DNA from: Escherichia phage ChristineMuster_Bas80 | Sequence record: PQ850597.1 | Strand: one strand, 5' to 3' | DNA length: 47,021 nucleotides | Part shown: positions 44,748 through 47,021 of the stretch, one piece after another | Layout: each line of letters starts with the position of its first letter | How positions within the stretch are numbered: position 1 is the stretch's first letter | Notes under the pieces: generated by a model | The model's input: only the letters and a program-made list of their open reading frames with translations | Told to the model about the DNA's origin: nothing | Databases searched by the model: none | Made by a program: the position numbers and the translations under genes

Positions 44748-44933
44748 ATGAACAAAGAAAGCACGTACAGCATCGACCAGATGAAGTTGTTCAGCGATAT
44801 ATGCATGGCATTGTCACAACAGGTTCCAAGTCTACCTGCTGATATGCGCTCAAATGCCATCATTGATGCGGCAAACATGATTTGTGAGGCATATGCTATG
44901 ACTGAAGATGAATATAAGGCATCGAAGAAATGA
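44748..44933 (+). CDS. Hypothetical small early protein
   Basis: GAGGGTGAAGAG RBS, first ORF after promoter. Confidence 0.4.
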   Translation: MNKESTYSIDQMKLFSDICMALSQQVPSLPADMRSNAIIDAANMICEAYAMTEDEYKASKK

Positions 44934-45025
44934 CAGGCGCAGCATTCGAGCTTATCTCCAGTCTGATTATCGTGGCATTCATCATTATCGCAGTGGCGGT
45001 TTCTAAATCAGGGTATAAGGAGTAA
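44930..45025 (+). CDS. Possible small membrane peptide (31 aa)
   Basis: ATGA-coupled ORF encoding hydrophobic LISSLIIVAFIIIAVAV. Confidence 0.25.
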   Translation: MTGAAFELISSLIIVAFIIIAVAVSKSGYKE

Positions 45026-45028
45026 CAA

Positions 45029-45211
45029 ATGGCAAAGACTATCTATCGTCGCGAGAAACTGGAGCCTGAACTCGGTCACGTTGGCGCGCAAAACTTTATG
45101 AGCAAGCAGGCACGCAATGCAATGGAATCTATACGCGTGAATCGCGTTGTGCGCGTGTTTAATGGTGAAGGTAAGCGAAGAGTAATGGATGAACTGATTA
45201 TCGTATTTTGA
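45029..45211 (+). CDS. Hypothetical small protein
   Basis: AAGGAG RBS. Confidence 0.4.
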   Translation: MAKTIYRREKLEPELGHVGAQNFMSKQARNAMESIRVNRVVRVFNGEGKRRVMDELIIVF

Positions 45212-45247
45212 CATCGATTCAGCAGGCTTATTTCTAATGGTGATGAT

Positions 45248-45481
45248 ATGGAAAAAGTAAAAACATACGAGTTCTGGTTTGTGCAGAACAAAATGTATGC
45301 AAGCAGGACAATCAAGAGAGTCAGCTGGTGGAATAAGTGGTTAATCCTCTCCGGCTGCATCGTGCTGGCAAAGTGCAAATTCAAAGCGATTGACATCACT
45401 GATGAAGACGCACTCAAAATCGCAAAGATTGAGTTTGAAGAGGATGGCTATTACGAAGAAATTATGGGGGTTAGGGTATGA
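45248..45481 (+). CDS. Hypothetical small protein with one hydrophobic segment
   Basis: 77-aa ORF. Confidence 0.4.
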   Translation: MEKVKTYEFWFVQNKMYASRTIKRVSWWNKWLILSGCIVLAKCKFKAIDITDEDALKIAKIEFEEDGYYEEIMGVRV

Positions 45482-45954
45482 GTGAAGTTAAAACATACGC
45501 AGTAAACTGCAACGACGCGTGGCTTAATACAGATGGCGATGACATCTCTGGCTCATATGTTAAGTATGCTGATTACATAACTCTTGCAACAAAGCTCGAT
45601 TTAGCCGAGCGTGCTTGCGCTGCCGTGGTGGCAGAGAGCGCGGCGTTTAAGGACATAAACGCATGGTGCAAAACGGATGCGTTCAGCAACATGTATCGTG
45701 AGTTCAAAACAGCAGAAGCTGTTGGTTGTTGCAACATTGACTGCATGCATGACGCAATGGTTGTCGCAATTATGCACGCACCTGAAGCGACAGTTACAGA
45801 TGCTTTCCTGGCTGAAATTGAACGCAAAGCAATCCGAAAGTTAATTAACAGCATTGAACACATCCTGCGTGACAAGCTGTCTCCGTATGACACCGAAGAG
45901 ATGCTTGAGGCTATGCGTATTTTTCTGGAAGAACAGGGAGGTGAGCAAAAATGA
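45478..45954 (+). CDS. Hypothetical protein (158 aa)
   Basis: ATGA-coupled ORF. Confidence 0.45.
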   Translation: MSEVKTYAVNCNDAWLNTDGDDISGSYVKYADYITLATKLDLAERACAAVVAESAAFKDINAWCKTDAFSNMYREFKTAEAVGCCNIDCMHDAMVVAIMHAPEATVTDAFLAEIERKAIRKLINSIEHILRDKLSPYDTEEMLEAMRIFLEEQGGEQK

Positions 45955-46298
45955 CGATAACAAAACAACGGGTAGAAGAAATCATATCCCGTATTGAAAT
46001 GTATGGGCATGGTGCCGGGTATACCGCTGATGAGGTTTATGACCTTGCTGTACTGGCGCTGAATTTATCAAATATCGCAAAACTCAAGCGATACGAGCTT
46101 GATATGGATGGTTGTGACTCGTTCGGTCAGGATTGCGGTGCAGACATGACTGAAGACCCTGAAGGCGAATTTGTCATGTTCAACGATGTTGTCAGTCTGG
46201 TTCAGTTTGACACCACCAACCAGCAATTCGAAAGCCTCAGCAATCACAAGCATCACTTCATCAACGGCACTTGCGTAGAGTGCCTGAAAAGTGAATAG
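45951..46298 (+). CDS. Hypothetical protein (115 aa)
   Basis: ATGA-coupled ORF. Confidence 0.45.
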   Translation: MTITKQRVEEIISRIEMYGHGAGYTADEVYDLAVLALNLSNIAKLKRYELDMDGCDSFGQDCGADMTEDPEGEFVMFNDVVSLVQFDTTNQQFESLSNHKHHFINGTCVECLKSE

Positions 46299-46436
46299 CT
46301 ACCCGTTCATATTAATTATCAGTGCGCTCTATGTGGCGCACGCTTTACAAACGACGCAAGTACACCACCGGCGCTAAAATCTTTCTTGCTGTGTATGTGC
46401 TGGCACTGGTGGCAGCTATTGCAGGAGTTGTGCATT

Positions 46437-46757
46437 ATGTTTAATAAATTAGCTGAGTTTTATAAAGCATATTCAGACTGGATTGATGCTGGCGCGCCAG
46501 AAGGTAAGCCGTTCAGTCGTAATTGCGGTATTTGTGTGTCCTTAACATTGCATTTAAAGGACATTGGGTTAACACCAAAGGAAAGGGAGCAGGCAAGAAA
46601 GTTAATGCGATCGCAATTCATTAAAGCTGGACTTAATGGTGACTACCCATTTAACAACCGAGAACTACCATATTTAACAGAAAGCGCAAGAGGAATGATT
46701 CACACCAACAAGAACCGCATAGCGTGGGTTAAAAAGGAGTGGCAGCATTATGTTTAA
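46437..46757 (+). CDS. Hypothetical protein (106 aa)
   Basis: ATG at 46437 with AGGAG RBS preferred over track start 46386. Confidence 0.4.
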   Translation: MFNKLAEFYKAYSDWIDAGAPEGKPFSRNCGICVSLTLHLKDIGLTPKEREQARKLMRSQFIKAGLNGDYPFNNRELPYLTESARGMIHTNKNRIAWVKKEWQHYV

Positions 46758-46929
46758 CGACATTAGTGACGCAATGGAATTCATGTGGAAGCGCTACTGG
46801 GACTGTATGATGACGTGTCATTACATGATGGTGCAGATAGGTAATTACATTGAGGTTGTGCCTGACAATGGCGTGCATAACATTAAGTACATGTGCTCAA
46901 CGAGGGCTTTCGCAAATGCAAACAACTAA
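46750..46929 (+). CDS. Hypothetical small Cys/Met-rich protein (59 aa)
   Basis: ATG overlapping upstream stop; below track cutoff. Confidence 0.3.
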   Translation: MFNDISDAMEFMWKRYWDCMMTCHYMMVQIGNYIEVVPDNGVHNIKYMCSTRAFANANN

Positions 46930-47021
46930 GCATAAAGTCTGGCAACTCGCCAAACAACACGAATTGGACGATTTTATCGCGAAGGTTGCCAAAACATTCC
47001 CTGACGCGCTTGAAGTCGTTC
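46916..47021 (+). CDS. Hypothetical protein, 3'-truncated by window edge
   Basis: ATG at 46916 overlapping the upstream ORF end; open to the end of the window. Confidence 0.3.
   Translation, partial: MQTTKHKVWQLAKQHELDDFIAKVAKTFPDALEVV

Follow-up and report, generated by a model that had tools for sequence, protein, structure and literature searches.

The analysed window (47,021 nt) is the whole circular genome of Escherichia phage ChristineMuster_Bas80, a virulent Skatevirus-like siphovirus close to Bas77–79. Its last part carries an array of ten small plus-strand open reading frames, here o1–o10, nine of them complete and the tenth cut by the window edge. An earlier, sequence-only reading had described at least nine small ORFs running to that edge, and this holds: when the window end was joined to the window start, o10 closed as a 55-aa ORF, its first 106 nt at 46916–47021 and its 3′ part at 1–62 across the circular junction, with the stop at base 62. 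Bas77 has the same junction-spanning ORF, starting at 45932 and unannotated in its record.

In order along the strand, the array consists of o1 (44748–44933, 61 aa, acidic, pI 4.6), o2 (44930–45025, 31 aa), o3 (45029–45211, 60 aa, basic, pI 10.5), o4 (45248–45481, 77 aa), o5 (45478–45954, 158 aa), o6 (45951–46298, 115 aa), o7 (46331–46444, 37 aa), o8 (46437–46757, 106 aa, all-helical), o9 (46750–46929, 59 aa) and o10. The start of o7 is given at 46331 as chosen by a codon-usage caller, the relatives' annotations of this gene being 108–114 nt long; with a GTG start at 46322 the product would have 40 aa. The nine junctions comprise ATGA overlaps at three (o1–o2, o4–o5 and o5–o6), 8-nt ATGTTTAA overlaps at two (o7–o8 and o8–o9), a 14-nt overlap at one (o9–o10) and gaps of 3, 36 and 23–32 nt at three, so that the earlier description of the array as mostly ATGA-coupled was overstated.

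The promoter proposed 30 nt before the first ORF was located at 44689–44717 (plus strand), with TTGACG at 44689–44694, a spacer of 17 nt and TAGATT at 44712–44717; exactly 30 nt separate it from the ATG at 44748, which confirms the coordinates. It is built from two direct copies of a 12-mer, the first of which, TTGACGTAGAAA at 44689–44700, contributes the −35 TTGACG and the second, TTGATGTAGATT at 44706–44717, the −10 TAGATT. The 30-nt leader GAACTCATCGGAACAAACGAGGGTGAAGAG (44718–44747, plus strand) contains a Shine-Dalgarno GAGG. Array and promoter adjoin an iteron-rich, replication-proximal intergenic region, in agreement with the position by a putative origin that had been noted.

The locus was compared with the corresponding loci of 13 relatives from GenBank phage records, which were used because the 531-aa replication protein gave one locus in viral contigs. 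The promoter doublet is kept in all 13, where the sequence upstream of it occurs in four unrelated versions, and the leader is almost identical in all of them. Taken by itself, the array promoter agrees with the consensus at only 9 of 12 positions, a level of match that showed no local enrichment (6 found vs 8.2 expected); it was therefore taken as a real sigma-70-type promoter, with −35 and −10 elements at a spacing within 16–18 nt, on the strength of its conservation and not of its consensus score. The window contains TTGAC-N18-TAGANT 4 times, where 0.1 would be expected, and leaders resembling that of the array come after motif promoters at 3078(−) and 24027(−). The array promoter is one member of a genome-wide motif family whose sites stand at the beginning of blocks of non-structural genes.

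Coding evidence and gene products

The plus strand of the array is 96.9% coding, and its ORF coverage of 0.93 exceeded that of every shuffled sequence (0.48 ± 0.12, maximum 0.79, n = 300). An independent codon-usage gene caller recovered o1–o9, the codon usage of the array ORFs agrees with that of the long genes of the phage, every ORF has a PHROG family match, and pN/pS against the relatives was 0.11–0.38 for all ten (0.11 for o1), indicating purifying selection. Chance open frames within non-coding or regulatory DNA would suit the very small ORF lengths and the absence of a Pfam match for most ORFs, but this explanation is effectively refuted by the pN/pS values, the coverage, the codon usage and the PHROG matches. 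The ten small ORFs are real phage genes and form a tightly packed operon.

None of the ten ORFs of the window matched a family of known function. Only two are represented in Pfam, both in families of unknown function, namely o3 in PF24386 (DUF7540; 112.5 bits, cut-off 27) and o10, with its ends joined, in PF24022 (DUF7334; 114 bits, cut-off 27); the earlier statement that no product has a recognised motif was borne out apart from these two DUF matches. No papers on DUF7540 were found in the literature. The PHROG families of o1 (phrog_15291), o2 (phrog_35977), o6 (phrog_3126), o7 (phrog_9340) and o9 (phrog_5407) are all of unknown function. NCBIfam, PADLOC and Rfam returned nothing within the array (PADLOC gave no match for the ten products at E ≤ 0.1), and sequence searches of o5, o6 and o8 against the PDB yielded chance matches only (E ≥ 0.48). 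An exhaustive HMMER search of 1.84 billion proteins found only 13 representatives of the o4 family, all small and stand-alone, with informative fusions absent.

The o5 product is EaE/Ead-Ea22-like and modular: its N-terminal module varies and its C-terminal half is conserved. Prophages and phage-plasmids contain 2,856 homologues of it, some of them named ‘Phage EaE protein’; 4 of 41 aligned family members match PF13935 (best E 2.2e-7), while o5 itself gave no match. An AlphaFold2 model from 41 sequences reached a pLDDT of 53.9 and a pTM of 0.26 and was therefore unfit for a fold search. A Lar-like assignment of o5 was rejected, the match to phrog_3592 being faint (E 0.0048, no stretch passing). 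In o6, an N-terminal domain of ~95 aa with invariant C55 and C62 is conserved and the tail is variable. It was also considered as a Cys4 zinc ribbon and rejected, since conservation is limited to C55 and C62, and most homologues lack the CxxC tail. The o5–o6 pair recurs, ATGA-coupled and at 76% identity, in E. coli prophages, and the DNA of the o5/o6 segment is ~90% identical to phage-plasmids.

Two products are predicted single-pass peptides: o2, with a Kyte-Doolittle maximum of 2.79 (19-residue window), which fits the 31-aa hydrophobic peptide described before, and o7, basic plus hydrophobic, with a maximum of 2.54. The 59-aa Cys/Met-rich product noted earlier corresponds to o9, which has 3 Cys and 8 Met among its 59 residues.

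Backbone, slots and dispensability

Comparison with the relatives divides the array into a backbone of six genes (o2, o3, o4, o7, o9 and o10) and four swappable slots (o1, o5, o6 and o8). Among the backbone genes, o2 (83–97% identity), o3 and o4 are present in 13/13 relatives and o7, o9 and o10 in 12/13, the Bas77 locus being cut at the record end in the case of o10. They are kept across many phage genera, in about 150–180 phage records (179 for o3), where they are annotated as hypothetical proteins. Among the slots, o1 is carried by three of the 13 relatives, the others having an unrelated 48-aa gene at the same place; full-length matches were found for o5 in five and for o6 in seven, and o8 is carried by four. 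The slots thus vary among collinear relatives while backbone genes and promoter stay constant, as is the case for an accessory region.

True homologues of counter-defence proteins occupy slots of the STGO-35-1, VSt472 and IME207 arrays, with Stp in STGO-35-1 (PF08133; 34.1 bits vs cut-off 25) and Lar at 43–44 bits (PF14354; cut-off 28.6). Among the ORFs of the window, neither Stp (PF08133) nor Lar (PF14354) was matched, the latter even at E ≤ 1.

Genome-reduced mutants of the Salmonella relative seszw are viable without nearly all of the array (PMC9825161); the loss of seszw genes 55–59 was reported by Yuan et al. 2022 (PMC9825161). The deletions were mapped here directly from the mutant genomes. 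Orthologues of o2, o6, o7 and o9 are missing from sequenced viable mutants, and mutants L015–L020 are viable without the orthologues of o2 through o10. In the smallest mutants, o2–o10, the o3 and o4 orthologues included, are gone apart from short terminal pieces of o2 and o10, and the promoter, TerS and TerL are retained; the o3 orthologue is missing from seszw_200L and seszw_300L.2. A structural or housekeeping role, which together with late expression had been named as what would refute the sequence-only reading, is excluded by these viable mutants. Dispensability for lytic growth refers to seszw only; together with the variation of the slots, the designation of the array as an accessory region is well supported.

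Role of the array and competing explanations

The array is probably a dispensable accessory operon of this virulent Skatevirus-like siphovirus and a counterpart of the lambdoid nin/ea regions. Host sigma-70 RNA polymerase would initiate at the promoter (44689–44717) and produce a single polycistronic mRNA, from which ten small proteins would be made; that the genes are packed tightly and mostly overlap is directly visible, and their translation may be coupled. The backbone is lineage-wide, and the slots are refilled by recombination with other phages, prophages and phage-plasmids. In the relative seszw, the products are needed neither for building nor for replicating the phage. From the promoter type, the position, the cassette behaviour and the occurrence of Stp and Lar homologues in the slots of relatives, we infer that their most likely role is to modulate the host or to counteract the defences of particular natural hosts, early in infection; ‘early’ and ‘anti-defence’ are used of the array in this inferential sense, and a literature search for a transcriptome study of Skatevirus-like phages found none. 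The fit with host takeover or anti-defence proposed from the sequence therefore stands in part: it gains from the accessory behaviour and from Stp and Lar in relatives' slots, but no known anti-defence or takeover family was matched among the ten products of the window.

It is unlikely that the array is instead the promoter-proximal part of a packaging operon, serving or regulating packaging or late expression and expressed with terS and terL, not early. The array shares its orientation with HNH-TerS-TerL, and no convincing terminator was found between o10/HNH and terS, so that insulation from the late genes was not seen and the array transcript may run into the packaging genes; a candidate at 573–610 in the HNH-terS interval was rejected (dG −6.8, z 0.16), and the first strong terminator, which is bidirectional, lies 3′ of terL at 2682–2703. 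In every relative, as in E. coli prophages, terS likewise keeps its place next to the array. The viable seszw mutants, however, drop o2 through o10 and retain TerS and TerL, and a promoter-like TTGGCA-18-TACAAT at 509–538 lies directly 5′ of terS. Moreover, terS identity is 51–54% in five relatives and 99% in seszw, with no match in seven, which indicates that terS is swapped independently of the array, and none of the array products resembles a packaging or regulatory protein.

We consider it quite improbable that the array acts mainly at the membrane, in superinfection exclusion or lysis timing, through o2 and o7 with soluble partners. Both peptides are conserved in nearly all relatives, the o2 orthologue is labelled a membrane protein in relatives' records, and one record calls the o9 orthologue a ‘holin’. 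This last label looks wrong, since o9 has no hydrophobic or transmembrane segment (Kyte-Doolittle maximum 0.88). Against a membrane function, the genome has a separate lysis cassette elsewhere, membrane peptides make up only two of the ten products, and no Imm, Sie or Cor-type family was matched.

There is very little probability that the variable members are morons, selfish or neutral cargo that moves between phages, brings this phage no benefit and is held by linkage only. Slot contents turn over fast, near-identical copies of them exist in prophages and phage-plasmids, deletions are tolerated, and one genome-reduced seszw mutant was reported to be fitter than the wild type, its deletions not being among those mapped (PMC9825161). 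A homing-type HNH endonuclease gene (19–489, plus strand; PF01844, phrog_2118 at 7e-59) has also been inserted beside the array, between it and terS; it does not belong to the backbone: tblastn found no match in the 13 fetched loci, of which that of Bas77 breaks off where its record ends; an HNH gene is annotated at 1–489 of that record. Purifying selection, however, acts on all ten ORFs, slots included, and the backbone has been kept in many phage genera (149–179 phage records).

Beyond the accessory operon as such, it is conceivable, though doubtful, that one or more of the backbone proteins (o3/DUF7540, o4, o9 or o10/DUF7334) or the widely shared o5–o6 pair act as an effector of counter-defence or host takeover that has so far escaped recognition, or else that the TTGAYGTAGATT doublet serves as operator for a phage regulator. 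In the former case the target would be systems absent from laboratory hosts. In the latter, the TTGAYGTAGATT doublet, which overlaps −35 and −10 at this promoter and at the heads of about ten further units, would time an early-to-late switch.

Relation to known accessory regions

The lambdoid nin region (lambda ren and ninA–ninI; the nin genes of P22) consists of small, packed, often overlapping ORFs between the replication and the late/packaging genes, and in lambda it is dispensable (nin5). The array is likewise packed, composed of small ORFs, dispensable in seszw and in a nin-type position, and homologues of o5 and o6 in E. coli prophages sit in that very place, between Phage_lambda_P (the O/P replication genes) and Terminase_2 (TerS). 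Unlike the nin region, the array is transcribed from a promoter of its own, divergently from the replication genes, and does not depend on pR read-through by antitermination; none of its ORFs matched NinB, NinG or another Nin family; and the phage is virulent. With neither Nin homology nor transcription from pR, the agreement is confined to position, packing and the o5/o6 cargo.

The Ea genes of the model phages lambda and P22 are non-essential and belong to the early-left operon, and the function of their products is, as here, largely unknown. The o5 family resembles Ea22/EaE (PF13935) in being mosaic and modular with variable N-terminal modules, and it has members that are named EaE, some matching PF13935. 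In contrast to the lambda/P22 ea genes of the b2/PL region, o5 of the window lacks a PF13935 match and lies at a nin-type location. For T4 Stp and Rac/lambda Lar-Ral, the likeness is to homologues in relatives' slots, and the array of the window contains neither.

Overall, the array is the usual accessory region of Skatevirus-like coliphages, one that has been catalogued before. Its discovery value is accordingly small: the genes are on record, some have been included in a published screen, and the seszw orthologues have been deleted experimentally. Of practical use are the naming of backbone and cargo members and the finding of Stp and Lar in the same slots of relatives. Bas77–79 of the BASEL collection offer a tractable system for four uncharacterised backbone families, and the genome-wide promoter/operator motif could explain the temporal programme of an understudied phage group.

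The published screen used 200 synthesised genes selected from phage accessory regions (Silas et al., bioRxiv 10.1101/2023.04.06.535777). Like those regions, the array is a variable cluster between conserved anchors, with the counter-defence genes Stp and Lar co-occurring in the arrays of relatives; it differs in that over half of it is conserved backbone and not variable cargo. The DS8 orthologues of o3 (QCQ57318) and o4 (QCQ57319) are among the 200 genes, and the main text makes no mention of either (bioRxiv 10.1101/2023.04.06.535777). The phage C1 gene AYR02316 of the same set lies at array-region coordinates and is a candidate member.

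Gene content of the array

As a nin/ea-type accessory operon, comparable to the accessory gene regions of lambdoid phages, the region is ordinary and already catalogued. Behind the array promoter TTGACG-17-TAGATT (TTGACG at 44689–44694, TAGATT at 44712–44717, + strand), with the first ATG at 44748, nine complete small + strand ORFs (o1–o9) are followed by a tenth, o10, cut at the window end. This agrees with the sequence-only reading, which had described the promoter, an ORF starting after 30 nt and at least nine small ORFs running to the window edge; its 31-aa hydrophobic peptide (o2) and 59-aa Met/Cys-rich product (o9) were likewise correct, while "mostly ATGA-coupled" was overstated, the junctions comprising three ATGA, three longer overlaps and three short gaps. 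The window covers a whole siphovirus genome in circularly permuted form, and once its ends are joined o10 (46916–47021 plus 1–62, + strand; 55 aa) closes at base 62 and matches Pfam DUF7334 with 114 bits. In Escherichia phage Bas77 it begins at 45932 and crosses the record origin, being unannotated in the GenBank record. Bas77, Bas78 and Bas79 are 93–96% identical to the window, and their records open at the same base; Bas77–81 were described as a Skatevirus-like cluster of O-antigen-dependent phages of 46–48 kb (BASEL paper). The array ORFs are real genes, since the coding fraction is 96.9%, ORF coverage exceeds that of all 300 shuffles, o1–o9 were recovered by our own codon-usage gene caller, and pN/pS against 13 relatives was 0.11–0.38 for every ORF.

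Backbone genes o2, o3, o4, o7, o9 and o10 were found in essentially all 13 relatives at approximately 70–100% identity, o1, o5, o6 and o8 being slots of changing content; the overlap patterns are kept in the relatives' annotations. All ten products fall into PHROG families of unknown function, and none has a known function. Of the backbone products, o3 belongs to Pfam DUF7540; a search of 1.84 billion representative proteins gave just 13 relatives of o4, each a small stand-alone protein. The o9 orthologue of STGO-35-1 (NC_054648, 3252–3431; 83% identity) is annotated as 'holin' in its RefSeq record, probably a misannotation, the window's o9 having no hydrophobic segment (19-residue Kyte–Doolittle maximum 0.88). 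For o8 a usable model was predicted (pLDDT 77.9); it had no PDB neighbour, but uncharacterised proteins of numerous unrelated phages are similar to it.

The slot product o5 is modular and belongs to a very large family (2,856 matches) that occurs in prophages of E. coli and in 110-kb phage-plasmids; EaE is the name of some members, and some match Ead_Ea22, but the window's o5 gives no match to the latter model. In o6, an N-terminal domain of ~95 aa is conserved and the tails are variable. Protein homologues of both are common in E. coli prophages, where they lie adjacent and ATGA-coupled within an array of small ORFs flanked by the O/P replication genes and TerS-TerL-portal, the nin-type position, which the window shares. 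At the DNA level, 45630–46243 (o6 with the 3′ half of o5) is 86–94% identical to ~110-kb E. coli/Shigella plasmids, taken as phage-plasmids, and also to records of small Salmonella plasmids; together with the prophage homologues, this sequence identity indicates that virulent and temperate elements have exchanged DNA recently.

Dispensability and candidate functions

Starting from the Skatevirus seszw, Yuan et al. (NAR 2022, PMC9825161) carried out iterative genome reduction and reported spontaneous loss of 'genes 55–59', which by locus-tag numbering are the orthologues of o4, o6, o7, o9 and o10. The deposited mutant genomes were mapped onto a parent-like clone. Mid-series mutants are without the orthologues of o2, o6, o7 and o9, and in the smallest, seszw_200L and seszw_300L.2, the first array gene joins directly to TerS with the promoter kept, o2–o10 being gone except for short terminal stretches of o2 and o10. 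As these mutants are viable, the array is dispensable for lytic growth on the laboratory host, as shown in this relative, and structural and housekeeping roles, which the sequence-only reading had set against its own view, are thereby excluded.

Of that reading of host-takeover or anti-defence early genes, the accessory and non-essential side is well supported; for anti-defence or takeover no family match was found in the window. The latter part rests on the association of relatives' arrays with Stp and Lar: in IME207 and VSt472 a true Lar homologue separates the orthologues of o3 and o4 (PF14354, 43–44 bits versus a cut-off of 28.6), and STGO-35-1 has a true Stp homologue just before its o3 orthologue (PF08133, 34.1 bits versus a cut-off of 25; MSNWHNEHIMQWYRR...). 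The ASO78B array holds a 288-aa protein, called DUF551-like by its record. Neither Lar nor Stp nor a protein of this 288-aa type is present in the window's own array. The 200 accessory genes that Silas et al. (bioRxiv 10.1101/2023.04.06.535777) picked from computed accessory regions and synthesised include the phage DS8 orthologues of o3 (QCQ57318) and o4 (QCQ57319) and a phage C1 gene with coordinates within the C1 array region. These ORFs are mentioned in neither of the two texts searched, the main text of the screen and a follow-up, which was taken to mean that no phenotype was reported. The missing family match, the two unmentioned orthologues and the restriction–modification sensitivity of the phage group weaken the anti-defence or takeover reading. 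The most interesting leftovers are the four uncharacterised backbone families and a repeated promoter/operator motif, TTGAYGTAGATT.

Boundaries, promoter and repeated motif

To the left of the array, an AT-rich intergenic region of 530 bp is followed by divergently transcribed replication genes and carries at least eight copies, in both orientations, of iteron-like TTTACCGG-type repeats (44263–44616). Where relatives have another replication module, the 48 nt immediately before the promoter are wholly different (four versions), which suggests that the intergenic region travels with the replication module. To the right, across the junction, follow an HNH endonuclease gene (1–489), TerS, TerL and a bidirectional terminator. 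Sequence analysis revealed no convincing terminator separating the array from terS, so a separate early transcript cannot be claimed on sequence grounds. The HNH gene, inserted between array and terS, is present in the window phage and in Bas77, which annotates one at 1–489, and had no match in the fetched loci of any of the 13 relatives. Since this ORF, as annotated from base 1, overlaps o10 with its 5′ end in another frame, the true HNH start is probably downstream, e.g. at base 19. LPST10 instead carries its homing endonuclease between the two terminase genes, terS and terL; endonuclease invasions around the terminase genes look independent.

Taken alone, the array promoter is an unremarkable 9/12 consensus match. 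In 13/13 relatives it is kept as TTGACGTAGAAt, five bases, yTGATGTAGATT and the leader GAACTCATCGrAACAAACGAGGGTGAAGAG-ATG, between four unrelated upstream versions and a first downstream gene that differs too; such conservation between divergent flanks clearly marks a functional element. The 12-mer TTGAYGTAGATT recurs at ~10 other genome sites at ≤1 mismatch, and at ≤2 mismatches at 29 sites versus a mean of 8 in shuffles. Sites lie at 3095–3106(−), 3173–3184(−), 7862–7873(+), 7890–7901(−), 10844–10855(−), 10870–10881(+), 19614–19625(−), 24027–24038(−), 37428–37439(−) and 44689–44717(+); matching + strand sites were found in the relative swi2. Often paired, direct or inverted, TTGAYGTAGATT heads almost every non-structural transcription unit, 30–60 nt upstream of the first gene in the small-ORF, anti-restriction/ParB/methylase, exonuclease/SSB and lysis blocks. 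Because a proper TTGAC −35 box lies 17 nt upstream at only four of the sites, the motif may be a phage-specific promoter class or a candidate operator for a regulator.

Structural gene clusters have extended −10 boxes, TGnTATAAT, ahead of them instead, immediately upstream of the portal, capsid, tail and major tail protein genes (3840–3896, 13630–13650, 19620–19650, 22670–22690, 24060–24080), which suggests a second promoter class. Given this division, the array promoter belongs to a class heading mostly non-structural units, which fits an early role without proving one; the grounds for 'early' are the type and class of the promoter, its position and analogy. The portal-gene box, TGCTATAAT, shares sequence with the left arm of a strong terminator (dG −20.3, z −4.8) ending 16 nt before the portal ATG; upstream transcripts would stop there, and those begun at TGCTATAAT would be without the left arm. 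A tRNA-Met gene (anticodon CAT; 22061–22137, − strand) is found in the long gap ahead of the gene for the major tail protein, and the swi2 record also annotates a tRNA-Met.
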